Part shown: in pieces, positions 40,337 through 64,000 of the stretch | How the letters are laid out: every line of letters starts with the position of its first letter | How positions within the stretch are numbered: the first letter of the stretch is position 1 | Assembly (NCBI GenBank): GCA_028826165.1 | Contig: JAPDFW010000064.1 | Coordinates: forward strand, 124,001-188,000 | Reading direction: 5' to 3' | Length of the DNA stretch: 64,000 nucleotides | Source: Anaeramoeba ignava BMAN | Lineage: Eukaryota; Protista; Anaeramoebae | Made by a program: the position numbers and the translations under genes | Notes under the pieces: model-generated | The model's input: only the letters and a program-made list of their open reading frames with translations | The model's database searches: none | Told to the model about the DNA's origin: nothing

Positions 40337-43300
40337 TTAATCTTTTTTATCCTCATTCTCTTCATTTTTCCCAACTTTCCAAAGCCAAAAATCAAAAGAA
40401 GAATTCATATTAAGTTGATAATAATCAGTTGCATCATATAAATCATTAATAACAAAATTAGGCAAATCAGGTTCCAAATTATCGAGATAAAGAAACCGAA
40501 TCAAAGCACGAAGAGCAAGAGGAGAAATATTCGAGTAATCATTCACTTGATTTGAATCATCAGAAACCAAAAGAAACATTCCTTTATATAAATCACTTCT
40601 TGCTCCTAAAATGAATTTGTGAACTTTTATTGGTTCATTTTGCGCAATGATAGTAAAATCTTTCGATTCTTCATCGTGAAACAATTTCTCCAGATCATTC
40701 AAGAGATTTTTCCTTGTGTTTAGTTTTTTGAAATCAAGCCCAATTTCTTGACACAAAATAGTGATTTTTTCAACTTTTTGTAAATCCGTTTTTCCAGTAT
40801 ACAAAAAACGAACAAAATCAACAACATCCTTCGTCAATTTAGATTTGAAAACATCGTGCATTTTTGGTAAAAACGAAGGACCAATTCGAAGAGTAATGAA
40901 AATTTTATGTAATCTTGTTGATCCATCAAAACAATTAATTTGATAATCAGTGAATTCGGAATTTTCATATAAAGCTAGTAAATCATCCGATAAAGAAGAG
41001 AATGAATCAAAGTAATTTCTGAGACGGTAGTTGACAAGATAGTCTGCAGGAAGTGCGTCTGTATCATTTTTACATTTGTAATCAGCATTGTTTTCAAGAA
41101 ACACTCTTAAAACTTCAAAATTAGGATTCATTCTTGCAAACATGTGAAGTGGTGTATCTCTCGAATTATTAAGTGCATTTAAGTCAGATCCATACTCAAT
41201 AAGAAGCTGCGCAACTTGATCCATGCAATCCGCAGAATTAAAAGACGCGGTGTGCAAGGGAGTGTTATTTCCTATATCGCACAAATTTGGATCATTTCTA
41301 TAATCCAACAGAATTTTTGTAATTTCAGGATTTTCACAAAATTGTGCTGCAAAATGAAGGAAGGATCTGCGATTAGAATCCATGCGGTTAATCTGTGCTC
41401 CTGATCTTAGGAGAAGATCAACCACTTTGGGATTTGGATTTTTCTGCATAAGAAGATGATGCAAAGGCTCCTTAAAATTTGAGAAACAGGAAGCATCAGC
41501 CTTGTGATTGATCAGCAATTCAAAGGCTTCCAAAGGTGCATTTGGATTGTCACAAAGCACATGAAGAGGGGAGTTGTGAGAAATATTGACGATGTTTGGG
41601 TTTGCGCCTTTTGATAAGAGTAGACGAAGTGAATCAAGATTAATATTTTGAAGTGAACATAAACCAGTTAGTAAAGTTTGTTGTCTTGTTAGTTCTTCAC
41701 ACAATGCACCATGGTCAAAAAGGAGTTGGATAACATCTGTGTCTCCGTGATTTGCGCACGCAATCAAAAGAGGTGTTCGCTTATTTTGACTGATTTGATT
41801 TGGATTTTGTCCCGATTCAAGTAAAATTTTCACTACATTATAACATCCTTTTCTTGCGCAAATATAATGCAAAGGACTCATTCCTCCCCATGTGAGATTC
41901 AGATGATCCTTCGGATTAAAAAGTGCTTCGATAATCTCCATTGAGGAGTTATTCTTAATTGCCAGTTCAAAAGGTGAGAATCCTGATCTGTTCTTTGTGA
42001 ATATGTTGTTTTTCGTTTCTAAGATTTTCTTCACAACTCCGATATTCTGATTTGGATCCATGCAGCAATGATGAAGCGCGTTATTGCCGTCAGCATCTTT
42101 GATTTTGGGGTCTGCACCTGCTTTAAGCAGAAAATCAACTGTTTTTGGATCAACCTGATTGTGACAAGCAATATGAAGTGGAGTTAATTTTGAGTCTGGT
42201 AAAGTTATGTTGAGATTCTGAATTTTTTCAACAATATAAAATATCGCGTCTGGATTCGTTTGGTATTCGCAAGCAATATGGAGAGGGGTATATCCCTGCT
42301 TGTTTCGGAGATTTACTTTGCTTCCTGCCTTGACTAGCATTTCAACAACTTTTGGATCAGGATTCATTTTGCAATTTGTATGAAGTGGTGTTTCCTTAAA
42401 GAAATTCAGCGAATTTACTCCTGCTCCATGTTGTAACATCAGTTTAACAGCTTCAGCCGTTGTTTTTTTACTGCATAAAAGATGCAAAGGTGTGTTTTTA
42501 TTGTCATTTTGTTTATTGATTTCTTTTCTTGATTTCCCAATTATGATCTTCAATACTTCCAAGTTTTGCGGTTGATATTCACATGCAATATGAATAGGAT
42601 GATTCTTAACTGTGTCTTGTTTGTGAAGTGCTTTTGGATAGCTATCAACGAGTATTTGAATGAATTGTGGCGATTCTTGATATCGCAATGCTACATGAAT
42701 TGGATATTGCAAACTTGAATTCCAAATGCTTGTTTTTGATCCTTTTTCAAGAAGTATTTTCAGTGTTTCAACATTTTTTGAATATTTACAAGCGAAAAAA
42801 AGCGCAGTTTCATCCTGGATTGTTTTGTAATGAATATCCGCTTTTTTCTGAAGAAGTAAATCAATGATTTTTGGATCAGCATCGTTTTGACATGCGTTCA
42901 TCAATATAGAATGTTTTTTACTATCAATAATATTTGGATCACTTCCATTTTCAAGTAGCATTTGAATGATTTCGTAAGAGTCTGAAAATATGTTTCCACA
43001 AGCGAGATTCAGCGGAGTCTGCCCGTCAAAATTCAGAGCATCTATCTTACTCTTTGCGTTTATCAGGCATTTTACGACCTCCTTTTTAGCCTTGAACTCG
43101 CATGCAATGTGAAGAGCTATACTATCATAACTATTCCCAATATTCACATCTGCTCCCTTTTGAATAAGCATTTCCACAGCTTCATATCCTGCATTCCACT
43201 GGCAAGAAAGATGAAGCGGTGTGATTCCTCGATTGTTTTTTCTGTTGATGTTGATTTTTCCCGTATTCATCAATAATTCAATGATTTTTGGATCTGCGTT

Positions 43301-43591
43301 GTATTGGCATGATAAATGAAGTGGATTGCTTCCATCGCTTGTTTTAGCTTCAATATTTACTCTTTGAATCAAGTTTCCAAACATGATTCTTCTTTCTTGG
43401 TTTTTTTGTTTTGTTTCATCATCTTCAAGATCTTCATTGTATTTTGATAGTAAATATTTCATTATTTTGGCACTTGCTCCCCATTGACATCCAAAAATTA
43501 ATGGATCTTCATATCCAACTTGTTTTATGAAATCTCGTAATGAAGAGAAATGTTCGTTTCCATATTTAATATTTTCTTCTTTTTCTGCCAT
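40337..43591 (-). CDS. Ankyrin-repeat protein (>20 repeats) with two C-terminal BTB/POZ-like domains; intronless
   Basis: Repeated TPLHxAC...LLxxGADxN units. C-terminal SLSDDLLALYENSEFTDY...LHKIFITLR and NLLNDLEKLFHDEESKDFTI...IKVHKFILGARSDLYKGMF. Confidence 0.93.
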   Translation of the reverse strand: MAEKEENIKYGNEHFSSLRDFIKQVGYEDPLIFGCQWGASAKIMKYLLSKYNEDLEDDETKQKNQERRIMFGNLIQRVNIEAKTSDGSNPLHLSCQYNADPKIIELLMNTGKININRKNNRGITPLHLSCQWNAGYEAVEMLIQKGADVNIGNSYDSIALHIACEFKAKKEVVKCLINAKSKIDALNFDGQTPLNLACGNIFSDSYEIIQMLLENGSDPNIIDSKKHSILMNACQNDADPKIIDLLLQKKADIHYKTIQDETALFFACKYSKNVETLKILLEKGSKTSIWNSSLQYPIHVALRYQESPQFIQILVDSYPKALHKQDTVKNHPIHIACEYQPQNLEVLKIIIGKSRKEINKQNDNKNTPLHLLCSKKTTAEAVKLMLQHGAGVNSLNFFKETPLHTNCKMNPDPKVVEMLVKAGSKVNLRNKQGYTPLHIACEYQTNPDAIFYIVEKIQNLNITLPDSKLTPLHIACHNQVDPKTVDFLLKAGADPKIKDADGNNALHHCCMDPNQNIGVVKKILETKNNIFTKNRSGFSPFELAIKNNSSMEIIEALFNPKDHLNLTWGGMSPLHYICARKGCYNVVKILLESGQNPNQISQNKRTPLLIACANHGDTDVIQLLFDHGALCEELTRQQTLLTGLCSLQNINLDSLRLLLSKGANPNIVNISHNSPLHVLCDNPNAPLEAFELLINHKADASCFSNFKEPLHHLLMQKNPNPKVVDLLLRSGAQINRMDSNRRSFLHFAAQFCENPEITKILLDYRNDPNLCDIGNNTPLHTASFNSADCMDQVAQLLIEYGSDLNALNNSRDTPLHMFARMNPNFEVLRVFLENNADYKCKNDTDALPADYLVNYRLRNYFDSFSSLSDDLLALYENSEFTDYQINCFDGSTRLHKIFITLRIGPSFLPKMHDVFKSKLTKDVVDFVRFLYTGKTDLQKVEKITILCQEIGLDFKKLNTRKNLLNDLEKLFHDEESKDFTIIAQNEPIKVHKFILGARSDLYKGMFLLVSDDSNQVNDYSNISPLALRALIRFLYLDNLEPDLPNFVINDLYDATDYYQLNMNSSFDFWLWKVGKNEENEDKKD

Positions 43592-46215: not shown

Positions 46216-46295
46216 TTAATTTTATTTAAAGAAAAAAGAATAAAAAAAAAATGATTTTTTGAATTTTTGGAAAGAAATTTAAAATTTATGTTAAA

Positions 46296-46791
<496 letters not shown>

Positions 46792-46940: not shown

Positions 46941-48594
46941 ATGAAAAATAATTCAAGAAAAATATCTCAAAATAACTCTTTTGTTTTAACAATAATATTA
47001 TTATTAGTTAGCATTTTTGTTACATTTTTTCTTTTCAATTTTTTAATTAATGATACAAAATGTATTAAAATCAAAATTAAAATCAAAATAAAAATCAAAA
47101 TCAAAATTAAAATTAAAATCAAAATCAAAATTAAAATCAAAATCAAAATTAAAATTAAAATTAAAATTAAAATTAAAATCAAAATCAAAATCAAAATCAA
47201 AATTAAAATCAAAATCAAAATCAAAATCAAAAATCAAAATTTAAATGAAAAAAATAGATTTAGATCAATTTCCAAAATTAGAACAAAATAACCACAAAGA
47301 AATTATCATAAAAGAATTGATTCATGTTCAAAATTCTATTTTTAAAATTGAAAAAGAAATTGAAGAATTAAAAAATGAAAATGAATCATTGAATAATTTC
47401 ACTTCAAATGCTTCATTTTATTTTGAATTTGATTTTGATTTACTTAATTATACTGATCCTTATTTATTTTTTGATAATGAATCTAATAGATTCAATCATT
47501 ATACAAACTATAACAAATCATTAGAATATCAAAAACAAATCATTTCACAAAATCAAATAAATTATCAATTTTTTTATGGTTCTTTTGCTTTAAATTTACC
47601 TCATTTTCTAAACAAAAAAGCATTTGAAAGATTTATAAAACACAGACATCAAAAAAGATATGATCAGATTTTTGATGAAAAAAATCAACAAATGGTTTTC
47701 AATTCATCTGTAAATTCATTTGGAAATATAACCTATTTCAAAGATTATTCTTTTCAAATATTTCCTAATTGTACTTTTTATGGTTTGAAAATTGAAGATT
47801 TTGAAATACCAAATTCAAATAATATCAAACATATGGAAAAAGTTGTAGTTGCTATTGCTCAATTTTCTAGTGCTTTTCAACACTTTATTGATCGTGTTTT
47901 AGGATCATTAATAAGAATAAGACCCTTTATTAAAGATAAAGGATGGACTCTTCTTATTGATTCAAGTATGGAAGAGATTCCTTATCAATTATTAAATCTT
48001 ATAAAAGAAGATTTTAATGTTAAACTTGAAGTTTATGATCCTTCAATTACTTACAAAATTGATAAATTAATGATAATTTGTAATATTCCTTTTATTCATC
48101 CAAGAAAATTTCAAGAAATAAGAACATTTTTAGTTAAAAATATTTTGAAAATCAATTCAAATGAAGAAATTCCAATTTATAAACAAGAAAATATCATTTA
48201 TTTACCAAGAGTTAATAATCATAACGAAAGAAATGTTATTAATAATGAAGAAATTGAAAATTATTTAAGAAAAAGATTTGGAAATAAACTCAAAATTTTT
48301 TCACATAAAGAACATCAAGATTTAAAAGAATTAGTTGAATATTTTTCAAAAGCCAAAATAATAATTGGAGCACATGGAGGAGCTTTTTATAATTTATTAT
48401 TTACTTTATCACATCCTATTGTTATTGAATTTCAAGGAAAACCATTTTTTGGAGAACTTTCAATATTTTATTGGATTTCACATACAACTGGAAATGAATA
48501 TTGGATAGATTATACTGAAGAAAGTGGAAATGATTTAATCATTAATTTAGATCATTTAAAAGAAATATTAAATAATGTTCTTAAAGAAAATTAA
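46941..48594 (+). CDS. GT61-like (DUF563) glycosyltransferase, copy 1; type II membrane protein; 2 exons
   Basis: Signal-anchor exon 46941-47061, then a phase-1 intron made of AAAAT(C/T) repeats (to ~47262). Motifs IIYLPR...RNVINNEE and FSKAKIIIGAHGGAFYNLLF...VIEF. Confidence 0.88.
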
Positions 48595-48683
48595 CATTAA
48601 TAATCATTTCAAATTTCAAATTTCAAATTTCTTTTTAATAAAAAATTTTTTCATTTTTTTTTTCATTTTTTTATTTTTATAAA

Positions 48684-50287
48684 ATGAGAATAACTTCAGA
48701 AGATTTTAGTGATACAAGAAAGATATTTCAACAAATAATTCAAAACAAATCTTTCATTTTAACAATTCTTTTAATATTTGTGAGTTTTTTATCGTTCTTT
48801 TTACCCTTCCATTTTGTTAGAAATAAAACAAGTAAATTCAAATAATAAAAAATTTATTTGAAAAAAAAAATTATTAATATAAAAAAAATAAATAAAATTA
48901 AACACAGACCAAAAACCAGATTTAGATATAGAAGAACCAACAACAGAACTTAAAATATTACAAAAAATGCAATTATTATACAAAAAACAACAAGAAGTGT
49001 GGGAAACTCGAAATTTCATTTTACAACTTGAAAATCCAATTGAAGAATTAAAGCAAGTATTACAAAGTAAAGGATCATCAAAATCTAAGGCTATTGAACA
49101 ATATTTGTTTTATTTTGACTTTCTAATTGATTTACTTAATTATACTGATCCTTATTCGTCTCATTCAAATGAAGATATTCGATTTATTGTTTATCCAAAT
49201 TATAATCAAACTCCAACAATTACCACAAAAATCATTTCAGAAAATCAAATTCGTTATGAAGTTCTTTATGGTTCATTTTTGCTAGATCTGCCTCATTTCA
49301 TTGATAAAAATTCAGAAAAAGAATTTATAAATGATTTCGAAACAATCAAGATTTAAAGAAATTTTTGATGAAAAAAATCAGAAAATACTTTTCAATTCAT
49401 CCGAAATTACAATCGGAAATATAAATTATTTCCGAAATTTAACATTCGATAAATTTCCTATTTGTTCAACAGATAATTTTGATATCAACGATTCCAAGTT
49501 ACCAAATTCAAACAATACAAAAACTATGAGCAATGTTATAATAATTAAGAAAGAAAATTATGAAGATAATGAGTATTGGATTTATCATTTTTTAGGAACA
49601 CTATTACAAATAAGACCCTTTATTAAAGATAAAGGATGGACTCTTCTTATTGATTCAAATACGCATGAGATTCCTTATCAATTATTAAATCTTATAAAAG
49701 AAGATTTTAATGTTAAACTTGAAGTTTATGATCCTTCAATTACTTACAAAATTGATAAATTAATGATAATTTGCAATTCACCTTTTATTCATCCAAGAAA
49801 ATTTCAAGAAATAAGAGCATTTTTAGTTAAAAATATTTTGAAAATCAATTCAAATGAAGAAATTCCAATTTATAAACAAGAAAATATCATTTATTTACCA
49901 AGAGTTAATAATCATAATGAAAGAAATGTTATTAATAATGAAGAAATTGAAAATTATTTAAGAAAAAGATTTGGAAATAAACTCAAAATTTTTTCACATA
50001 AAGAACATCAAGATTTAAAAGAATTAGTTGAATATTTTTCAAAAGCCAAAATAATAATTGGAGCACATGGAGGAGCTTTTTATAATTTATTATTCAGTTT
50101 ATCACATCCTATTGTTATTGAATTTCAAGGAAAACCATTTTTTGGAGAACTTTCAATATTTTATTGGATTTCACATACAACTGGAAATGAATATTGGATA
50201 GATTATACTGAAGAAAGTGGAAATGATTTAATCATTAATTTAGATCATTTAGAAGAAATATTAAATAATGTTCTTAAAGAAAATTAA
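48684..50287 (+). CDS. GT61-like glycosyltransferase, copy 2; divergent N-half, C-half near-identical to copies 1 and 3
   Basis: Signal-anchor exon from 48684 with a phase-1 intron (~48832-48907) at the same position as in its paralogues. One extra A at ~49341; removing it restores the alignment FINDFEQSRFKEIFDEK vs FIKHRHQKRYDQIFDEK. Confidence 0.83.
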
Positions 50288-50360
50288 CATTAATAATCAT
50301 TTCAAATTTCAAATTTCTTTTTAATAAAAATTTTTTTTCTTTTTATTTTTCATTTGTTAA

Positions 50361-52220
50361 ATGCGAAATAATTCAAGAAAAATATCTCAAAATAACACTT
50401 TTGTTTTAACAATAATATTATTATTAGTTAGCATTTTTGTTACATTTTTTCTTTTCAATTTTTTAATTAATGATACAAAATGTATTAAAATCAAAATCAA
50501 AATCAAAATCAAAATCAATATCAAAATCAAAATAAAAATTAAAATCAAAATCAAAATCAAAATCAAAATTAAAATCAAAATTAAAATCAAAATCAAAATC
50601 AAAATTAAAATCAAAATAAAAATTAAAATCAAAATTAAAATCAAAATCAAAATTAAAATCAAAATTAAAATCAAAATCAAAATAAAAATTAAAATCAAAA
50701 TCAAAATCAAAATCAAAATCAAAATCAAAATTAAAATCAAAATCAAAATTAAAATTAAAATCAAAATTAAAATCAAAATCAAAATTAAAATTAAAATCAA
50801 AATCAAAATCAAAATCAAAATCAAAATTAAAATTAAAATCAAAATTAAAATCAAAATTTAAATGAAAAAAATAGATTTAGATCAATTTCCAAAATTAGAA
50901 CAAAATAACCACAAAGAAATTATCATAAAAGAATTGATTCATGTTCAAAATTCTATTTTTAAAATTGAAAAAGAAATTGAAGAATTAAAAAATGAAAATG
51001 AATCATTGAACAATTTCACTTCAAATGCTTCATTTTATTTTGAATTTGATTTTGATTTACTTAATTATACTGATCCTTATTTATTTTTTGATAATGAATC
51101 TAATAGATTCAATCATTATACAAACTATAACAAATCATTAGAATATCAAAAACAAATTATTTCACAAAATCAAATCAATTATCAATTTTTTTATGGTTCT
51201 TTTGCTCTAAATTTACCTCATTTTCTAAACAAAAAAGCATATCAAATATTTATAAAACACAGACATCAAAAAAAATTTGAACAGATTTTTGATGAAAAAA
51301 ATCAAAAAATGATTTTCAATTCATCTGTAAATTCATTTGGAAATATAACCTATTTCAAAGATTATTCTTTTCAAATATTTCCTAATTGTACTCCTTATGG
51401 AATTAAGAACAATGTAGATTTTGAAATACCAAATTCAAATAATATTAAACATATGGAAAAAGTTGTAGTTGCTATTGCTCAATTTTCTTATGCTTTTCAA
51501 CACTTTATTGATCGTGTTTTAGGATCATTAATAAGAATAAGACCCTTTATTAAAGATAAAGGATGGACTCTTCTTATTGATTCAAATACGCATGAGATTC
51601 CTTATCAATTATTAAATCTTATAAAAGAAGATTTTAATGTTAAACTTGAAGTTTATGATCCTTCAATTACTTACAAAATTGATAAATTAATGATAATTTG
51701 TAATATTCCTTTTATTCATCCAAGAAAATTTCAAGAAATAAGAGCATTTTTAGTTAAAAATATTTTGAAAATTAATTCAAATGAAGAAGCTCCAATTTAT
51801 AAACAAGAAAATATCATTTATTTACCAAGAGTTAATACTATAAACGAAAGAAATGTTATTAATAATGAAGAAGTTGAAAATTATTTAAGAAAAAGATTTG
51901 GAAATGAACTCAAAATTTTTTCACATAAAGAACATCAAAATTTAAAAGAATTAGTTGAATATTTTTCAAAAGCCAAAATAATAATTGGAGCACATGGAGG
52001 AGCTTTTTATAATTTATTATTCAGTTTATCACATCCTATTATTATTGAATTTCAAGGAGAAAATACAAAAGGAGAACTTTCATTATTTTATTGGATTTCA
52101 CATACAACTGGAAATGAATATTGGATAGATTATATTGAAGAAAGTGGAAATGATTTAATTATTAATTTAGATCATTTAAAAGAAATATTAAATAATGTTC
52201 TTAAAGAAAATTACCATTAA
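50361..52220 (+). CDS. GT61-like glycosyltransferase, copy 3; 2 exons
   Basis: Close paralogue of copy 1. The same repeat-filled intron is about twice as long (~50482-50880). Confidence 0.88.
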
Positions 52221-52315
52221 TAATCATTTCAAATTTCAAATTTTTCTTTTTCTTTTTAATAAAAAATTTTTTTTTCATTTTTTATTTTTTTCATTTTTTT
52301 CATTTTTTTTTTTAA

Positions 52316-53776
52316 ATGCATCAACTACAAAATTTACCATTATTTGTTAAAACTTTTTTTGTTATCTTTTTGATTGGACAAATAATAATTTTTTTAACTT
52401 TAAATTCGAAATGGATGATTACAAAAGAAAATGATCAACAAACTTCAAAAGAAATACAAATAATAAAGCAAATAGAAATTAAAAATAAATCATGTGAAAC
52501 TAAAATTGAATTTTGCGAATGCGAAGAAGAAAAAAAAAATTCATCAACAGATTTAGTTGCGAAATTACAAGAAATAGAAAACAAGCTAGAAATGACAAAG
52601 CAATGTTCATCAGAATATGGATATTTATTAATAAAGAATTGGCAGGAATCAAGAATAGATATTTGTTCAGGATCAAAATTATCGCAAGTTTCTTGTTATA
52701 AAAGAGAAAACCCAGGGAAGCATATTTTATGCACAGGAAAAAATGTTGAAATCAAAGGATACGAACCATTTTTTAAGGCTGGAAACACAGCAGTTCCAAC
52801 AAGGAACAACGTTCATTTTGGAGGAGGATTTTTAACTGTGGATTGCAGTCAAGCACTTAAAAATTGGGTTCCTTCGGATCAATGGGAACATCATGTGAGT
52901 AATGTTATTGGGAATATGATTTCTGTTCCCGAAATGAATTGCGACCATTGGGTCGATGATACTGTGATGCTGATTTTCCGTTGGGATCAATGGAATTCTT
53001 ATCATGCTTTGGAGGATTATATAACGGCTTTCATTAGTCTTCTTATTCTTAATGAAGACCCTCAGAAAATCCAGCTTGTTTTCACTGATGATATGCCTCC
53101 TGGCGCACAAGTCTATGATTTTTGGTCTTATTATTTCGCGAAAGAGCCTATTTTTTTAAGAGATGGAAAATTCCCGCAAAATACTTGCTTCAAAAAAGCT
53201 ATTTTTGGAATGTGGGCTCAAAACTCAATTTTATCGATTGATTTTTCTCGAAATTGGAGTAAAAACTGCAGATCAAGTATTATTCTCCTCTTTAAAAAGT
53301 ACATTCTTCCAAGATTTAATATTTCTATTGAGGATAATGTTCATAAACCTCCTTATACAATTGCATTTGTCAAAAGAGAAGATTATCAAAACAAAAACAT
53401 TGCAAGAAAAATCACAAATCACGATGAGATTTTTAAATATATTGAAAGAAAACTCCCCAAAGATTGGTCAATTGTGAACTTCCAACCTGAAAAACTAACA
53501 ATTGAGGAGCAAATTCAAATGAGTTCCCGATTCTCAATTATAATCGGTCCGCATGGAGCTGCTTTTACTTATGTTGTTTTCTTTCCTGAGAAATCTCATC
53601 TTATTGAGATCTTTATGGGTGATCGAGGTTCAATTAATGTTCATTTTAAGAATCTTTGTGTTTTTATGGGTCATCATTATCATAATGCTGGTCATTTTAG
53701 TAACAATGTTCCTCCTGAAACACTTTGGAATATTGTTGAATCTTCAATCAAAGAAATTGAAAAACTTCCTCATTAA
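52316..53776 (+). CDS. GT61-family glycosyltransferase (EOGT/POMGNT2-like); intronless
   Basis: N-terminal signal anchor and Cys-rich stem; NSYHALED; CFKKAIF; RKITNHDE; LTIEEQI...IIIGPHGAAFTYVVFFPEKSHLIEI; FKNL...G. Confidence 0.88.
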   Translation: MHQLQNLPLFVKTFFVIFLIGQIIIFLTLNSKWMITKENDQQTSKEIQIIKQIEIKNKSCETKIEFCECEEEKKNSSTDLVAKLQEIENKLEMTKQCSSEYGYLLIKNWQESRIDICSGSKLSQVSCYKRENPGKHILCTGKNVEIKGYEPFFKAGNTAVPTRNNVHFGGGFLTVDCSQALKNWVPSDQWEHHVSNVIGNMISVPEMNCDHWVDDTVMLIFRWDQWNSYHALEDYITAFISLLILNEDPQKIQLVFTDDMPPGAQVYDFWSYYFAKEPIFLRDGKFPQNTCFKKAIFGMWAQNSILSIDFSRNWSKNCRSSIILLFKKYILPRFNISIEDNVHKPPYTIAFVKREDYQNKNIARKITNHDEIFKYIERKLPKDWSIVNFQPEKLTIEEQIQMSSRFSIIIGPHGAAFTYVVFFPEKSHLIEIFMGDRGSINVHFKNLCVFMGHHYHNAGHFSNNVPPETLWNIVESSIKEIEKLPH

Positions 53777-56526: not shown

Positions 56527-58008
56527 CTAAAAATTTTGTTTTTCAAAATAAACTTCAATTTCTTCAATCTTCCAATTATCGAAAGATCCAGCAAGAAAAA
56601 TCTTTGCTTTTTGTAATGTATCTTCAATTTGAGAAGGGACTTCATAAGTATAACCAAAATCAGAGTAAAAAGTATCAAATAAATCTTCTTGATTTGAAGA
56701 GCTTGAATAGATGGTAATATCACCTCCACCAAAACTTGGTCCATGATAGTCACGATACAGAATAGAATATTTACTCTTAGATTTTTTCAATTTGAATCGC
56801 TGAGGTTCTGTTTTTTGGATATTTCGAAGTGTGAAAATGAATGCATTTTCATCTTTGATCCAAAAATTATTTCCTGTTGTTCTTCTCCATCCGACATCAG
56901 TAAAACCTCCAAAAATGGATCCATTTGTGGTTTGAATGACAACTAAAGATCTGCCTGAATTATCGCATTTTTGATGGAAGGATTTGCCGCAAAATCCGTC
57001 TTTTTTGGCTGAGTAACCCAAAATCATTGAGGAAAAAAATTCGGGTTTTTTGATCCAATTTTTCAGTTTTTGGGAATATTTTTTCTTTCCTTTGATAATT
57101 GAGCTTTCCGAAAAGCAATCTCGTGATTGAAAAATAGCAAAATTTTGCTGATGGTATTTTTGCTTTAATTCATATATCCTTTTCGAATAGGGTTCGTTTT
57201 GAATGAAATGTGAAAATTCAAGGATATCGTGCATAATGGAATTGGGAATTAATTTCAGTTTTTGGATTTTCTGGAGATCGACTGGGTTGATATCACAAAA
57301 CCTGATTTTCCCAATAAATTGTGAAAAGGCTTCTCTTGTATTATTTGTCTCTTCGCCCATTTCAACATCTGATTGGGAAGTTGAGTCTGAATGAAACTGA
57401 ACCCATTTGAGTAATAAATAAAATAAATCAATTTCATTTTCAATTTCAAAATTGGGTTGATTGAGCAAAAAATTCAAATCATTTGCTGAAAATTTGAGGA
57501 ATCTTTGACTATGAATAATCTCTTGGAAATGAACCATCACAAATTTCATGCAGTAGAAATATAAATCTTGGTAGTTGAGTCTTGATGAAATTGCCAAAAT
57601 ATCAATCACATTTTCTAATTGAATATTTTCTTCAATAAACATTGTTAAAAAATTAATAATTCCTGAATCAAGAAGAAGTTTTCTTGCTGAAATCAAAGCT
57701 TCAAATGCATTATTTAAATTGATATCAATTATTCCTGTGTAAATATAATGAATAATCAACTTAAAAATTTCTGGGGAAACATCAGTAAAAACAACAATTC
57801 CTTCTTGTGATTCCTTCATTTTGGATCGAAATAATCCATAAAAATATTCACTTCTTGATGATAATATTGCTTTGTGTGCGTGAATAACAGTTTCTTTCTT
57901 GGATTTGATGATGATTTTAAAATCGGAAAACTCGATCCCATTTTGGAAAAGTTGGAAAATATCTTTGGAAAGTTGTTCTTGATTTTTGAATTGCGAAAAT
58001 TCATTCAT
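56527..58008 (-). CDS. BTB-BACK-TLDc protein
   Basis: BTB FSDFKIII...HAHKAILSSRSEYFYGLF...YIYTG; BACK ENEIDLFYLLLKW...IRF; TLDc YSAKKDGF...FHQKCD...GSIFGGFT...GPSFGGG...IEEIEVY. The likely start is the ATG at 58008. Confidence 0.93.
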   Translation of the reverse strand: MNEFSQFKNQEQLSKDIFQLFQNGIEFSDFKIIIKSKKETVIHAHKAILSSRSEYFYGLFRSKMKESQEGIVVFTDVSPEIFKLIIHYIYTGIIDINLNNAFEALISARKLLLDSGIINFLTMFIEENIQLENVIDILAISSRLNYQDLYFYCMKFVMVHFQEIIHSQRFLKFSANDLNFLLNQPNFEIENEIDLFYLLLKWVQFHSDSTSQSDVEMGEETNNTREAFSQFIGKIRFCDINPVDLQKIQKLKLIPNSIMHDILEFSHFIQNEPYSKRIYELKQKYHQQNFAIFQSRDCFSESSIIKGKKKYSQKLKNWIKKPEFFSSMILGYSAKKDGFCGKSFHQKCDNSGRSLVVIQTTNGSIFGGFTDVGWRRTTGNNFWIKDENAFIFTLRNIQKTEPQRFKLKKSKSKYSILYRDYHGPSFGGGDITIYSSSSNQEDLFDTFYSDFGYTYEVPSQIEDTLQKAKIFLAGSFDNWKIEEIEVYFEKQNF

Positions 58009-58074
58009 TTTTAGAAAGAAAGAAAGAAAAATGAAATTCAAAAAATAGTTTTTTCATTTTTTTCTTTTTTAAAA
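58009..58074. promoter_or_regulatory. 66 bp bidirectional promoter between two BTB genes
   Basis: Divergent ATGs at 58008(-) and 58075(+), with one TTTCATTTTT motif on each strand. Confidence 0.65.
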
Positions 58075-59853
58075 ATGAATGAAATTATATTTTTTGGAAG
58101 AAATGAATATCCAAAACTTATCAAAAATAAACCAAATGAAATAATAAAACCAATTCAATTTAAATTTGAAAATGAAAATGAAAATGAAAATGAAAAACAA
58201 ATTAAACAAATTTCAACATCAGATTTATCAACAATTTTCCTTTTTCAAAATGGAAAAGCAATAGAATGTTTAAATTATTTAAATGATTTAAATCCAAATC
58301 CTGAAAAAATCCAAATTGAAGAAAATATTCAAAAAGTAATTGTTGGTTTTGATAATGAAGCTATTTTAACAATAGAAGGAAATGTATTTGCAAAAGGAAA
58401 AGATATTAATCCAAAAAATCCAAATGAATTTATCAATATTTCATTATTAATTGAAGATAAAAATGATAGAATAATTGAAGATATCTTTTCTGGAGCTAAT
58501 TCAATTTACTTATTAACTTCAAATCAAAATGTTTATGGAATTGGTTCAAATTTTTATGGTCAACTTGGTTTTGATTCTAAAACACTTAAAAAAACAGAAA
58601 AACCAATTTTAATGATGAAAGATATTTCTAAAATATTTACAGGAGGTGATTCAGATAATGTTTTTCTTTTAAATTCAAATCAAGAATTATTTAGATGTGA
58701 TGATAATAGAAATGGTCAAGTTGGATTAGGAGAATCAAGAAAAGAAAAAAAAATTCAAAAATTAACCAAAATCCAAAATATTCCAAAAGGCAAAATAATT
58801 GATATTAAATGTGGGGGTAATCATTCAATAATGTTGATTGAAAATGAAAATGAAAATGAAAATCCAAAAAGAAAACTTTATTCACGTGGATGGTATCGAT
58901 ATAATGGACTTGGCAAAGATGAAAATATTTATGAATTTACTGAAATTAAATCATCTTTATTTGAAAATGATGATGATATTATTGATTTTTCTGTTGGGTT
59001 TGAACATACTTTGATTTTAACATCCAAAGGGAAACTAATTGGATTTGGAAGTAATAGATACGGTGAATTAGGAACTGGAGATACAAAAGATCAATCGATT
59101 CCAATTCAAATTGAACTTCCTAAATTAAGATTTAATGAAGATATTTCCAATTATCATATTTCTTGCGGTGATTATAGATCATTTATTTATTATTCTCCTT
59201 CTCTTTCCAATCTTGAAGAAGATTTGATAAAATTATTTAGAAGAAAAGAATTTTGTGATATTTCATTTAAAACAGAAAATGGAGAAATAATTAAAGCTCA
59301 TAAATTAATATTGAAATATAGATTAAATCAAAATCAAAATCAAATTGAAAAACTTAAAGAAATTATTTCAAAAAAATCAATTAAAGAATCAAATCAAATA
59401 TTTGAAATGATTTATTCAAACAATTCCATAATAAATCCAAAATTATATTCTGAAATTAAAGAAATTATAAATTCCAATGAAAAAATTGAAGAAACAATTA
59501 AAAGAATTTATTTAAATGAAAATGAAAATGAAAAAGATTTTATAATTGAAAGAAAAGAAAAACAATATAAATTTCCTAAATTAATATTAATAATGAGAAG
59601 TGAATTATATCGAGGAATGTTTTTATCTGTAACTGAAGATACTTCTAATAAAGTTACAGATTATAGTGAATTAAGTAATAAATCATTTCAAATATTAGAA
59701 TATTGGATTTATTCAAATCAAATTAAAGAAGAAATTCAAATTACACAAGAAATAATTGATGAAATTCAAATTGGAATTGATTATTTTCAATTAAATCAAA
59801 CAAATCCAAATTTATTTGATTTATTAATTAACAAATTTAATAATCAAAATTAA
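58075..59853 (+). CDS. RCC1-repeat beta-propeller with tandem BTB-like domains, copy 1
   Basis: GSNFYGQLG, IKCGGNHSIML, SVGFEHTLIL and GSNRYGELG; BTB-like NLEEDLIKLF...FCDISF...IKAHKLILKYR and KDFII...PKLILIMRSELYRGMF. Confidence 0.92.
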   Translation: MNEIIFFGRNEYPKLIKNKPNEIIKPIQFKFENENENENEKQIKQISTSDLSTIFLFQNGKAIECLNYLNDLNPNPEKIQIEENIQKVIVGFDNEAILTIEGNVFAKGKDINPKNPNEFINISLLIEDKNDRIIEDIFSGANSIYLLTSNQNVYGIGSNFYGQLGFDSKTLKKTEKPILMMKDISKIFTGGDSDNVFLLNSNQELFRCDDNRNGQVGLGESRKEKKIQKLTKIQNIPKGKIIDIKCGGNHSIMLIENENENENPKRKLYSRGWYRYNGLGKDENIYEFTEIKSSLFENDDDIIDFSVGFEHTLILTSKGKLIGFGSNRYGELGTGDTKDQSIPIQIELPKLRFNEDISNYHISCGDYRSFIYYSPSLSNLEEDLIKLFRRKEFCDISFKTENGEIIKAHKLILKYRLNQNQNQIEKLKEIISKKSIKESNQIFEMIYSNNSIINPKLYSEIKEIINSNEKIEETIKRIYLNENENEKDFIIERKEKQYKFPKLILIMRSELYRGMFLSVTEDTSNKVTDYSELSNKSFQILEYWIYSNQIKEEIQITQEIIDEIQIGIDYFQLNQTNPNLFDLLINKFNNQN

Positions 59854-59990
59854 AATTAAAATTAAAATTAAAATTAAAATTAAAATTAAAATTAAAATTA
59901 AAATTAAAATTAAAATTAAAATCAAAATTAAAATTAAAATTAAAATTAAAATTAAAATTCAAAATTAAAATTAAAATTAAAATTAAAAAT
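59846..59990. repeat. (AAAATT)n microsatellite beginning at the stop codon of RCC1-BTB copy 1 (same arrangement after copy 2)
   Basis: CAA AAT TAA AAT TAA... continues directly from the coding NQN. Confidence 0.93.
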
Positions 59991-60017
59991 ATTTTTTTCA
60001 TTTTTTTCTTTTCAAAA

Positions 60018-61778
60018 ATGAATGAAATTATATTTTTTGGAAGAAATGAATATCCAAAACTTATAAAAAATAAACCAAATTTAATAACAAAACCAATTCA
60101 ATTTAAATTTGAAAATGAAAATGAAAATGAAAATGAAAAACAAATTAAACAAATTTCATCAGGAAATTATTCAACAATTTTCCTTTTTGAAAATGGAAAA
60201 GCAATAGAATATTTAAAATATTCAAATTCAAATCAAAATCCTGAAAAAATCCAAATTGAAGAAAATATTCAAAAAGTAACTGTTGGTTATCAAAATGAAG
60301 CTATTTTAACAATAGAAGGAAATGGATTTGCAAAAGGAAAAGATATTAATCCAAATAATCCAAATCAATTTATCAATATTTCATCATTAATTGAAGATAC
60401 AAATGATAGAATAATTGAAGATATTGTTTCTGGACATAATTCATTTTACTTATTAACTTCAAATCAAAATGTTTATGGAATTGGTAATAATTCTTTTGGC
60501 CAACTTGGATTTGATTCTTATTATAAAACAGAAAAACCAATTTTAATGATGAAAAATGTTTCTAAAATATTTTCAGGAAATTCTTCTTATCATGTTTTTC
60601 TTTTAAATTCAAATCAAGAATTATTTGGATGTGGTGATAATCAATATGGTCAACTTGGATTAAGAGAATCAATAAAAGAAGAAAAAGAAATCCAAAAATT
60701 AACCAAAATCCAAAATATTCCAAAAGGTAAAATAATTGATATTCAATGTGGAGAATTTCATTCAGTAATGTTGATTGAAAATGAAAATCAAAATCAAAAT
60801 CCAAAAAGAAAACTTTATTCATGTGGTGATTATCTATTTAATGGACTTGATAAAGATCTAGATACTTATGAATTTACTGAAATCAAATCATCTTTATTTG
60901 AAAATGATGATATTCTTGATTTTTCTGTTGGATATGCTCATACTTTGATTTTAACTTCTAATTCAAAATTGATAGGATTCGGAGATAATTCTTATGGTCA
61001 ATTAGGAACTGAAGATACAAAAAATCAATCAATTCCAATTCAAATTGAACTTCCTAAATTAATATTTAATGAAAATATTTCCAATTATCATATTTCTTGT
61101 GGAGATGATAAATCATTTCTTTATTATTCTCCTTCTCTTTCCAATCTTGAAGAAGATTTGATAAAATTATTTGAAAGAAAAGAATTTTGTGATATTTCAT
61201 TTAAAACAGAAAATGGAGAAATAATTGAAGCTCATAAATTAATATTGAAATATAGATTAAATCAAAATCAAAATCAAATTGAAAAACTTAAAGAAATTAT
61301 TTCAAATAAATCAATTAAAGAATCAAATCAAATATTTGAAATGATTTATTCAAACAGAATAATAAATCCAAAATTATATTCTGAAATTAAAGAAATTATA
61401 AATTCCAATGAAAAAATTGAAGAAACAATTAAAAGAATTTATTTAAATGAAAATGAAAAAGATTTTATAATTGAAAGAAAAGAAAAACAATATAAATTTC
61501 CAAAATTAATATTAATAATGAGAAGTGAATTATATCGAGGAATGTTTTTATCTGTAACAGAAGATAAATCTAATAAAGTTACAGATTATAGTGAATTAAG
61601 TAATAAATCATTCCAAATATTTGAATATTGGATTTATTCAAATCAAATTAAAGATGAAATTCAAATTACACAAGAAATTATTGATGAATTAGAAACAGGA
61701 ATTGATTATTTTCAATTAAATCAAACAAATCCAAATTTATTTGATTTATTAATTAACAAATTTAATAATCAAAATTAA
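60018..61778 (+). CDS. RCC1-repeat beta-propeller with tandem BTB-like domains, copy 2 (tandem duplicate)
   Basis: Colinear with copy 1, including the upstream motif and the downstream repeat. Confidence 0.92.
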   Translation: MNEIIFFGRNEYPKLIKNKPNLITKPIQFKFENENENENEKQIKQISSGNYSTIFLFENGKAIEYLKYSNSNQNPEKIQIEENIQKVTVGYQNEAILTIEGNGFAKGKDINPNNPNQFINISSLIEDTNDRIIEDIVSGHNSFYLLTSNQNVYGIGNNSFGQLGFDSYYKTEKPILMMKNVSKIFSGNSSYHVFLLNSNQELFGCGDNQYGQLGLRESIKEEKEIQKLTKIQNIPKGKIIDIQCGEFHSVMLIENENQNQNPKRKLYSCGDYLFNGLDKDLDTYEFTEIKSSLFENDDILDFSVGYAHTLILTSNSKLIGFGDNSYGQLGTEDTKNQSIPIQIELPKLIFNENISNYHISCGDDKSFLYYSPSLSNLEEDLIKLFERKEFCDISFKTENGEIIEAHKLILKYRLNQNQNQIEKLKEIISNKSIKESNQIFEMIYSNRIINPKLYSEIKEIINSNEKIEETIKRIYLNENEKDFIIERKEKQYKFPKLILIMRSELYRGMFLSVTEDKSNKVTDYSELSNKSFQIFEYWIYSNQIKDEIQITQEIIDELETGIDYFQLNQTNPNLFDLLINKFNNQN

Positions 61779-61922
61779 AATTAAAATTAAAATTAAAATT
61801 AAAATTAAAATTCATTTTGAAATTAAAATTAAAATTAAAATTAAAATTAAAATTCAAATTCAATTCAAAATTAAAATTAAAATTAAAATCAAAATCAAAA
61901 TTAAAATTAAAATGATGTTTTT

Positions 61923-62596
61923 TCATTTCTTTGAATTTTCATCAATAAATTCTTGAACTTTTTTTTGAAATAAATCTTTATCTTTTCTTAAAAGTTCACC
62001 AGCTATTCTATTATCTGGATCATCTGGATTAGGTTCCTTTTTTTTTTTTTTTGTTTTTTGTTTATAAATATGAATTTTAATTTTGTTTTTGTTTTTGTTT
62101 GAAATTTTTAAAATTAAATTAAAATCATTTACTAAAAACATAAAAATAAGACCAAAAATAATTGAATTTAAATCAAGAATTGGATTCCATTCACGATCTA
62201 AAATATTCAAACAAGGATAACCATTTTCATCAATATTAGGATGAAATATCTTTGTTTCACAAAAAACTTTTGGAGGAGAAACTGGATAATTTTGTGGAAT
62301 TTTAAAATCAAAAACAAATGAACCATTTTTATAAAATCCTTCAAGTGGAGTAATGATAACTTTAAAGTGAGAAAAATCTTCTTTTTCAGGAAATTCAATT
62401 CTCACTTCTTCTATTTTTTCAATTGCTTGTAAATCTAAATTTTAATTTTAGTTTTAATTTTATAAATAAATCTTAATTTGGAATTTTATAAATAAATTTT
62501 ACCTTTTTGGATTCTGTCTTCTCGAGTTTGAGATTGCTTTTCTTCTTTTGTTGGTTCTTGTTTTCTTTCTTTTTTTAATTCAATTAATTTTTGCAT
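61923..62596 (-). CDS. UBC12: E2 conjugating enzyme, NEDD8-type (Ubc12/UBE2M-like); 3 exons
   Basis: MQKLIELKKE...RIQK|DL...IEFP...PLEGFYKNGSFVF...YPVSPPKV...FHPNIDENGYPCLNILDREWNP...IIFGLIFMFL|EPNPDDP. Confidence 0.85.
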
Positions 62597-62688
62597 TTTA
62601 AAAAAATGAGAAAAAAAGAAAAATGAAAAATGAAAAAAAAATTTTTAATTTAATTTTGAAAAAATTTCTCTTTAAAAAAAAAAAATAA

Positions 62689-63619: not shown

Positions 63620-64000
63620 ATGAATTCAAATTTAAATTCAAAACAAGGAAATAATGATATTTGGTTTTTGGGTCAAAATTATTTTGTTTCACTTACAAAA
63701 GATAAATCACAAAAAATTGCAAAATTTACTCAATTAATTTTACCTCAATTTAAATTTAAAAACCAAAATCAAAATCAAAATCAAATTGAAAATCAAAATG
63801 AAATTGAAAATCAAAATCAAAATCAAATTGAAAATCAAAATCAAAATCAAATTGAAAATCAAAATGAAAATGAAAATCAAAATCAAAATCAAATTGAAAA
63901 TCAAAATGAAATTAAAAATGAAAATGAAAATGAAAATCAAAATCAAAATCAAAATCAAAATCAAAATCAAAATCAAAATCAAAATGAAAATCAAAATCAA
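63620..64000 (+). CDS. 5'-partial gene, possibly another RCC1-family protein, with an NQ/NE repeat
   Basis: ATG at 63620 follows a TTCATTTT motif. The frame MNSNLNSKQGNNDIWFLGQNYF...PQFKFKNQNQN is open to the window end and resembles NEIIFFGRN...IQFKFENENE of the RCC1-BTB genes. Confidence 0.6.
   Translation, partial: MNSNLNSKQGNNDIWFLGQNYFVSLTKDKSQKIAKFTQLILPQFKFKNQNQNQNQIENQNEIENQNQNQIENQNQNQIENQNENENQNQNQIENQNEIKNENENENQNQNQNQNQNQNQNQNENQNQ

Follow-up and report, generated by a model that had tools for sequence, protein, structure and literature searches.

We describe a family of about 600 proteins in the anaerobic amoeba Anaeramoeba ignava in which an RCC1-type beta-propeller is followed by a tandem BTB module, and in which sequence variation is concentrated in loops on one predicted face of the propeller. 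Two members, P0001 (592 aa, gene 1 at 58075..59853) and P0002 (586 aa, gene 2 at 60018..61778), are encoded by intronless genes in tandem on the + strand of the stretch of DNA studied here (64,000 nucleotides of A. ignava BMAN, contig JAPDFW010000064.1, positions 124,001 to 188,000; hereafter the window). Our overall reading, to which we give an even chance, is that these proteins are likely Cullin3 receptors for fast-changing foreign cytosolic proteins, and that their loops are likely reshuffled by short-tract gene conversion.

The variation is best seen across paralogues. We aligned 157 single-unit members (575-630 aa) of the about 606 in the family, picked by closeness to the two window proteins, so that identities may run high; six of 120 proteins fell outside this length range and were left out (P0003-P0006, P0042 and P0095). 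By motif, 33 loop sites were defined: the residues that follow (S/C/V)G (two per repeat, but four in repeat 4), here called class A, and the x positions of GxNxxG, class B. In gene 2, class A covers codons 50-51, 91-92, 140-141, 188-191, 246-247, 306-307 and 363-364 (within 60165..61109, +, at 60165-60170, 60288-60293, 60435-60440, 60579-60590, 60753-60758, 60933-60938 and 61104-61109). Class B covers codons 9/11/12, 108-109, 157/159/160, 207/209/210, 271/273/274 and 323/325/326 (within 60042..60995, +, at 60042-60053, 60339-60344, 60486-60497, 60636-60647, 60828-60839 and 60984-60995).

Mean identity among the 157 paralogues is 25% at the 33 loop sites (26% for class A, 24% for class B), 84% in the rest of the propeller and 93% in the BTB half. 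In the 112 paralogues from outside the window the entropy is 2.61 bits in the loops, 0.48 in the rest of the propeller and 0.19 in the BTB half. None of 100,000 random site sets equals the loop entropy, a test that is partly circular because the 33 sites were set after a first alignment had been inspected. In 43 paralogues obtained later the three values are 2.49, 0.49 and 0.20 bits. Nearly every protein (156/157) has its own combination of loops, and only 14 of 12,246 paralogue pairs exceed 60% loop identity. Eight old paralogues, whose scaffolds are only 35% alike, have class A loops that are 46% identical, above the value in the young family.

The loops are also unusual in composition: Tyr accounts for 20.7% of loop residues, Ser for 13.7%, Asn for 12.5%, Phe for 10.3% and Asp for 8.9%. 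A make-up rich in Tyr and Ser is typical of antibody paratopes. A+T-rich codons may contribute to it. Tyr falls to 3.0% in the remaining propeller and to about 0% in the turns of the opposite face, which are rich in Asn, Glu and Lys and equally A+T-rich.

The sequence-only reading of the window had proposed that the variable loops make up one face of the propeller, and the predicted structure bears this out. The AlphaFold2 model of P0002 (pLDDT 89.5, pTM 0.84) contains a propeller of seven RCC1-type repeats (residues 4-370; 60027..61127, +), for which Foldseek finds the RCC1-like domains of RPGR and HERC2 (E 5e-25, TM 0.77-0.82 by target). Faces were assigned from strand order, without coordinates, since successive loops of an antiparallel meander point to alternate faces; for repeats 2 and 3, strand W was placed by eye from short DSSP bridges. 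Under this assignment, 35 of the 42 sites with at least 2 bits of entropy lie in the X-Y and Z-W loops (108 residues), while the opposite loops hold none in 87 residues (p=7e-11) and have entropies of 0.23-0.50 bits. The remaining seven are in strands adjoining the variable loops, and none is in the BTB half, so the scatter over both faces that would have contradicted the proposal is not seen.

An alignment with UVR8 supports the same face independently. G305-Y-A-H, which carries class A residues 306-307, aligns with G-W-R-H of UVR8, and G322-D-N-S-Y, with class B residue 323, aligns with G-W-N-K-F, the position of a peripheral interface tryptophan. By spacing, the aligned tryptophans are W285 and W302, which lie at one dimer interface (PMC7455749). 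The variable loops are thus predicted to form one face. From strand order, both chain ends, and hence the BTB module, would exit from the opposite face.

The pair is part of a much larger family, as the sequence-only reading had supposed. Searches with P0001 find 606 proteins at E<=1e-180, counted as clusters at 90% identity and for lengths of 325-1,036 aa only, and searches with P0002 find 844 at E<=1e-20. Among the matches listed (120 per query) there are 163 distinct proteins, the two window proteins and 161 named ones; all 161 are from A. ignava and they are spread over many contigs. A profile search aimed at the sister species A. flamelloides returned 31 proteins: 29 named A. ignava proteins, P0001 and one JGI protein. 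In the supplementary tables of the A. ignava genome paper (PMC11550330, Supplementary Data 4) the unnamed PANTHER family PTHR45982 has 597 A. ignava genes, including one of the listed relatives. Given a proteome of 15,022 proteins (PMC11550330), this subfamily makes up about 4% of A. ignava genes. The same source gives 156 and 189 PTHR45982 genes in A. flamelloides, 83 in Naegleria and 0-10 in other metamonads. It also gives 364 A. ignava genes in PTHR22870, 213 in PTHR22872 and 8 cullins. The expansion is thus lineage-specific (606 proteins; 597 PANTHER genes versus 0-10 in other metamonads), as in the F-box and MATH-BTB families discussed below.

Outside the assembled genome, run X6, a hydrothermal-vent metagenome, contains pieces of the family of 93-225 bases with 4-21 differences, so the family is likely present in wild relatives. 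Scans of viral and metagenome contigs gave 20 and 236 pattern matches, respectively, none of which was confirmed as a relative. Some A. ignava relatives have additional domains. P0124, P0126 and P0129 have armadillo repeats N-terminal to the RCC1-BTB unit, and P0042, P0326, P0003 and P0005 are annotated as a unit fused to a Rho GTPase, actin or another unit. P0005 spans an (AAAATT)n spacer, and several of the annotated fusions are therefore likely gene-calling errors.

The contrast between loops and scaffold is also found within the window pair. P0001 and P0002 are 86% identical overall. Their differences fall on 23 of the 33 loop sites, on 50 of the remaining 341 sites of the propeller and on 11 of 211 sites in the BTB half; of the 27 codons with at least two base differences, 22 are in the propeller. 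Both open reading frames and their RCC1 and BTB domains were recovered where the sequence-only reading had placed a tandem pair, together with all 11 of the differing loop motifs that it quoted. It had called both the BTB half and the propeller scaffold nearly identical, which is right for the BTB half but not for the scaffold (85% identical in the pair). Differences do recur at two positions of successive repeats, as it claimed. Two more variable spots lie at residues 9-12 and 108-109, and further variable sites form a rim at the distal end of the long loops. The two genes are not a haplotype or assembly duplicate, since an identity of 86% resembles that of any two family members and places the pair at the 92nd percentile. 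In P0001, at residues 207-209 (58693-58701), an Asp replaces a Gly that is invariant in 112 other paralogues (G206 of P0002), and this blade is possibly damaged.

At the DNA level, loop codons of the pair have a proportion of nonsynonymous differences (pN) of 0.46 and a nonsynonymous rate (dN) of 0.71, compared with a synonymous rate (dS) of 0.09 outside the loops and a dN of 0.026 in the BTB half. Three codon models with one synonymous rate give loop dN/dS ratios (omega) of 8.5, 5.4 and 4.5, with p<1e-7 in all three. Neutral relaxation cannot yield a peak two codons wide, eight times the dS of the gene, at every repeat of one face. A peak of this kind calls for a targeted mutator or for selection with adjacent bases hitchhiking, and selection is favoured. 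We consider it highly probable that the variable face serves in binding and has been diversified by selection.

The scaffold carries a second signal, which the sequence-only reading had missed. We studied linkage, from protein data only, at 46 scaffold sites with two common states in the 157 proteins. For adjacent codons (7 pairs) the mean r2 is 0.39; it drops to 0.064 at 2-3 codons (9 pairs) and to 0.003-0.008 at greater distances, where the level expected without linkage (1/n) is 0.006. All four gametes are present for 1,005 of the 1,019 site pairs more than three codons apart. Residues 3 and 4 form a two-codon unit with multi-base states, D3-C4 or E3-I4 (59 versus 95 copies), that is completely linked within itself (r2 1.0) and unlinked to distant sites. 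Further, distance matrices of different segments are uncorrelated and there is no tree-like signal. A Mantel test gave a negative result for r2 versus distance (4,436/5,000), since linkage has fallen to background once five codons are passed. When duplication and point mutation were simulated without conversion, 17 of 18 settings exceeded the observed r2 of 0.008.

This loss of linkage beyond three codons suggests short-tract gene conversion among copies. Frequent and very short conversion among dispersed copies would be the simplest explanation, and from the protein alignment we think it quite probable that copies exchange short tracts. In addition, six pairs of tandem neighbours have similarities at the 92nd-100th percentile of the 12,246 pairs, so local duplication or exchange also occurs. 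Mosaics created by polishing of the assembly are unlikely: at loop codons 157-160, contigs of runs X1, X5 and X6, which do not depend on the long-read assembly, have different letters, and 76% of 180 sampled 31-mers of gene 2 are present in run X1. The depth of run X5 is greater over the propeller half; contig depth cannot rank gene parts, and nothing was drawn from it.

The BTB half is nearly constant in comparison. Pfam detects RCC1 repeats and two BTB stretches in both proteins: PF00415 and PF13540 exceed their cut-offs, PF25390 scores 134.8 and 143.4 (under the cut-off of 150), and PF00651 scores 38.6 and 45.1 bits (cut-off 20.5). In gene 2 the module covers residues 376-585 (61143..61772, +) and stops at helix 6 of the second BTB. 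In gene 1 the propeller is at about 58075-59193 and the BTB module at about 59209-59847, limits transferred from the P0002 model through the codon alignment. A model of the C-terminal 216 residues of P0002 (pLDDT 93.2) has tethered Miz1-BCL6 and Nac1 BTB dimers as its first six Foldseek matches, and the module is thus predicted to fold as a single-chain pseudo-dimer. The seventh match is the BTB of SPOP bound to Cul3. Over the whole module (199-208 of 215 residues) the matches are Atlas models of RhoBTB3, LZTR1 and ankyrin-BTB proteins (TM 0.70-0.77).

A candidate Cullin3 contact is the alpha3-beta4 segment of the second BTB, G508-D516 (61539..61565, +), placed by alignment with KBTBD4. Residues 504-513 and D516 are invariant in all 157 proteins, while position 515 is Glu in 110 and Asn in 40. 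In KLHL3 the alpha3 region that corresponds to these invariant residues makes contact with Cul3 (PMC3616122, which also defines the phi-x-E motif). Further, IBTK, with RCC1 repeats and two BTBs, requires its BTBs to bind Cul3 (PMC4447969). Taken together, the invariant BTB module probably recruits Cullin3-Rbx1, so that bound proteins would be ubiquitylated. Hydropathy of P0002 shows neither a signal peptide nor a membrane segment, and ligands would therefore be cytosolic or nuclear; a reading of the family as secreted receptors was rejected on the same grounds.

The proposed explanation combines these elements. Point and multi-base changes at loop codons would be retained by selection, while conversion would homogenise the scaffold and recombine the roughly 13 loop patches, so that nearly all copies would pair the same standard ligase plug with a loop combination found in no other copy. 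Foreign cytosolic proteins bound by such a library, which would resemble that of antibodies, could then be tagged for destruction by the ubiquitin ligase. Foreign ligands are rather likely in our view; candidates are proteins of viruses or mobile elements and effectors from bacteria that live inside cells. A bolder version, which we regard as doubtful, is that about 4% of the genes of this single-celled eukaryote form an anticipatory antibody-like intracellular repertoire on one propeller scaffold joined to a ubiquitin ligase. Its Tyr-rich paratope loops would be recombined continually by a dedicated process of micro-conversion or targeted mutation, and its targets would be effectors of symbionts, parasites or viruses.

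Several observations weigh against the proposal. Selection at the DNA level was analysed in the window pair only (P0001 versus P0002). With a local synonymous rate, loop omega drops to 3.0 (p=0.011), 1.4 (p=0.57) and 1.3 (p=0.6), and is thus not significantly above 1 in two A+T-aware models. It falls because of a higher synonymous change next to the loops, where 6 of 18 four-fold sites (at most one codon away) differ, against 7 of 96 elsewhere (p=0.006). Short-tract gene conversion would also account for this raised local dS. The claim that dN/dS exceeds 1 at the loops is thus upheld against the gene-wide dS (4.5-8.5) and weakened, for this one pair, against the local dS (1.3-3.0). Clustered changes are also found in a pair from the glycosyltransferase 61 paralogue cluster of the window (47245-53776, +), with 31 amino-acid and 10 synonymous-only codons among 449, so clustering alone is not peculiar to the RCC1-BTB family, and multi-base differences may be common in the A. 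ignava genome. The class B loops of the eight old paralogues are only 18% identical. One simulation setting, an extreme star tree with two-state hypermutable sites, matched the low r2, but it produced 145-159 two-state sites instead of 46. For the Cullin3 link, the phi-x-E motif is atypical: V513-T-E515 lies one residue early, and L-K-E of KBTBD4 aligns with T-E-D. No 3-box was found, as the model ends one helix past BTB helix 5 and Pfam gives no BACK match. Some Cul3 adaptors, of the KCTD type, have no 3-box. The 3-box is described as needed for tight Cul3 binding (PMC3616122, PMC4447969). Finally, IBTK binds its substrate Pdcd4 through the C-terminus and not through the RCC1 repeats (PMC4447969).

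The same data bear on other origins of the variability. A targeted mutator acting on loop codons, whether error-prone, templated or similar to a diversity-generating retroelement (DGR), would make the variation mutational rather than selected, and would fit the raised synonymous change within 1-2 codons of the loops and the 66% share of Y, S, N, F and D among loop residues. However, E, Q, K, R and W make up another 18%. These residues need a purine at codon position 3 or fall otherwise outside the spectrum of DGR adenine mutation. Further, the flanking Gly and Asn remain fixed, the local dS is explained by multi-base mutations or by hitchhiking within short tracts of conversion, and no template is seen in the window, so we give this mechanism little credence. 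A DGR proper was rejected, as 57900-62000 (the part of the window searched) contains no template-like repeat and changes occur at all four bases. Neutral drift in the surface loops of a selfishly amplified family, or mosaics from polishing, would fit a genome of about 80% A+T with repeat tracts after each gene and an assembly polished with short reads (PMC11550330). Such accounts are very improbable and largely refuted by a loop dN eight times the non-loop dS, the barely varying loops of the opposite face, a mean of only 2.1 departures per copy at 311 near-invariant columns, and the runs X1, X5 and X6 described above.

Two further alternatives accept the variable face as a recognition surface but change what it serves. 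In one, the BTB pair scaffolds a partner other than Cullin3, in autophagy, trafficking or signalling, and the proteins are sensors and not ligase adaptors. The missing 3-box, the atypical phi-x-E and the rank of transcription-factor BTB dimers above Cul3 adaptors in Foldseek are in line with this. It is nevertheless unlikely, since the whole-module matches are RhoBTB3, LZTR1 and ankyrin-BTB proteins, the best single-domain match is Cul3-bound SPOP, the alpha3 segment that contacts Cul3 in KLHL3 is invariant in 157/157, and a similar BTB segment is attached to ankyrin repeats in the window and to armadillo repeats in relatives. In the other, Cullin3 receptors divide up the amoeba's own expanded proteins, for instance Rho/Rab GTPases or the symbiosome machinery. 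RCC1-like propellers do bind host proteins, as in RCC1-Ran and the top face of HERC2 RLD2 (PMC13748646), and Rho GTPases are expanded in Anaeramoeba (log2FC 3.89). With self substrates one would, however, expect stable subfamilies whose faces are conserved, as seen for HERC2 and the eight old paralogues, while the large family has almost no shared loop sets and no tree-like signal; we therefore hold this to be rather improbable.

In comparison with known systems, the closest functional parallel to the Cullin3 receptors proposed here is the F-box and MATH-BTB families of nematodes and plants, where positive selection is described for substrate-binding and not for cullin-binding domains and degradation of foreign proteins has been proposed (PMC4334554, citing Thomas 2006). 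The A. ignava family would likewise consist of hundreds of cullin adaptors with a conserved cullin part and a variable substrate part, which are 93% and 25% identical, respectively. Where the nematode and plant families have MATH or FTH, this family of a single-celled metamonad has an RCC1 propeller as its ligand domain, and neither F-box nor MATH is present in the Pfam scan of P0001 and P0002; the family is therefore functionally like those families, not a member of them. Further, the nematode and plant families are described as birth-death families, in contrast to the single young subfamily here, with 84% identity and linkage lost within three codons.

RCC1 repeats followed by BTBs are also known from IBTK and S. 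pombe Btb1 (ankyrin-RCC1-two BTB-3-box) and from RCBTB1/2 (RCC1-BTB). Fission-yeast Btb1, like IBTK, has RCC1 repeats and two BTBs and binds Cul3 (PMC4447969), and RCBTB1-type clusters reach a feature score of 0.94. Those are low-copy conserved genes with a 3-box, whereas the A. ignava family has no ankyrins or 3-box, about 600 copies and a variable face. Membership of the IBTK/Btb1 group was rejected, as P0001 and P0002 have no ankyrin match and no 3-box. The tandem-BTB Cul3 adaptors LZTR1 and RhoBTB share the whole tandem module (TM 0.72-0.75), and LZTR1 also has a propeller, but they carry a Kelch or GTPase domain in place of RCC1 and are single conserved genes. The RCC1-like domains of UVR8, HERC2 RLD2 and RPGR share the fold, and both loop classes align to UVR8 interface positions. 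HERC2 RLD2 binds peptides in a conserved top-face groove (PMC13748646). In these proteins the face is conserved, while in A. ignava it is the least conserved part.

Repertoires diversified by gene conversion include chicken immunoglobulins, the mosaics of trypanosome variant surface glycoproteins (VSG) and the major histocompatibility complex (MHC). They resemble the A. ignava family in a fixed scaffold, a variable surface rich in Tyr and Ser, and patchwise exchange. They are surface or secreted proteins, in contrast to the predicted cytosolic location here, where no expression site or silent donor archive is known.

The expansion itself is already tabulated in the supplement of the genome paper; the variability of one face and the shuffling were found nowhere in print. 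A literature search found no paper joining Anaeramoeba, RCC1 and BTB and nothing on such a protist family, although subscription journals could mention it. BTB, RCC1, ubiquitin and cullin are absent from the main text of the A. ignava genome paper (PMC11550330), parts of whose supplements could mention the family, and from the text of the A. pumila preprint, whose supplements could likewise do so.

The rest of the locus can be described briefly. The duplicated unit is about 1,940 bases long and takes in a 33-base 5' flank and an (AAAATT)n tail. The spacer between the genes (59854..60017, +) consists of an (AAAATT)n tract and then this flank, which recurs ahead of gene 1 at 58042-58074, and a second tract starts directly after gene 2 (from 61779, +). 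Just upstream of gene 1, and divergent from it, lies a BTB-BACK-TLDc gene (56527-58008, -) whose M-K-E motif is canonical. The pair is followed directly by a gene for the NEDD8-conjugating enzyme UBC12/UBE2M (61923-62600, -; E 6.5e-35) with apparent introns. This enzyme is the E2 that activates cullins, and its position beside the pair may be chance. An ankyrin-repeat protein (40337-43591, -) has a C-terminal BTB with a similar alpha3-beta4 segment and may belong to a second adaptor family. At 63620-64000 (+) an open reading frame leaves the window; it starts with WFLGQN, like the first strand of RCC1 units, and continues in N/Q/E repeats, without a Pfam match. Long simple-repeat tracts at 50361-50861 and 46288-46791 yield spurious open reading frames with IK and Y runs.

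Diversified immune receptors in free-living protists are largely an open question, and the case for expanded cullin adaptors as a means of degrading foreign proteins has so far been made mostly in nematodes and plants. A. ignava is a culturable amoeba that houses bacterial symbionts, and since its roughly 600 versions of a single scaffold vary at some 30 defined codons, the idea is directly testable in it. The loss of linkage within three codons is an unusual case of shuffling in a gene family. In addition, the family is a natural library of the positions of an RCC1 propeller that tolerate free variation, which is useful for the design of binders.

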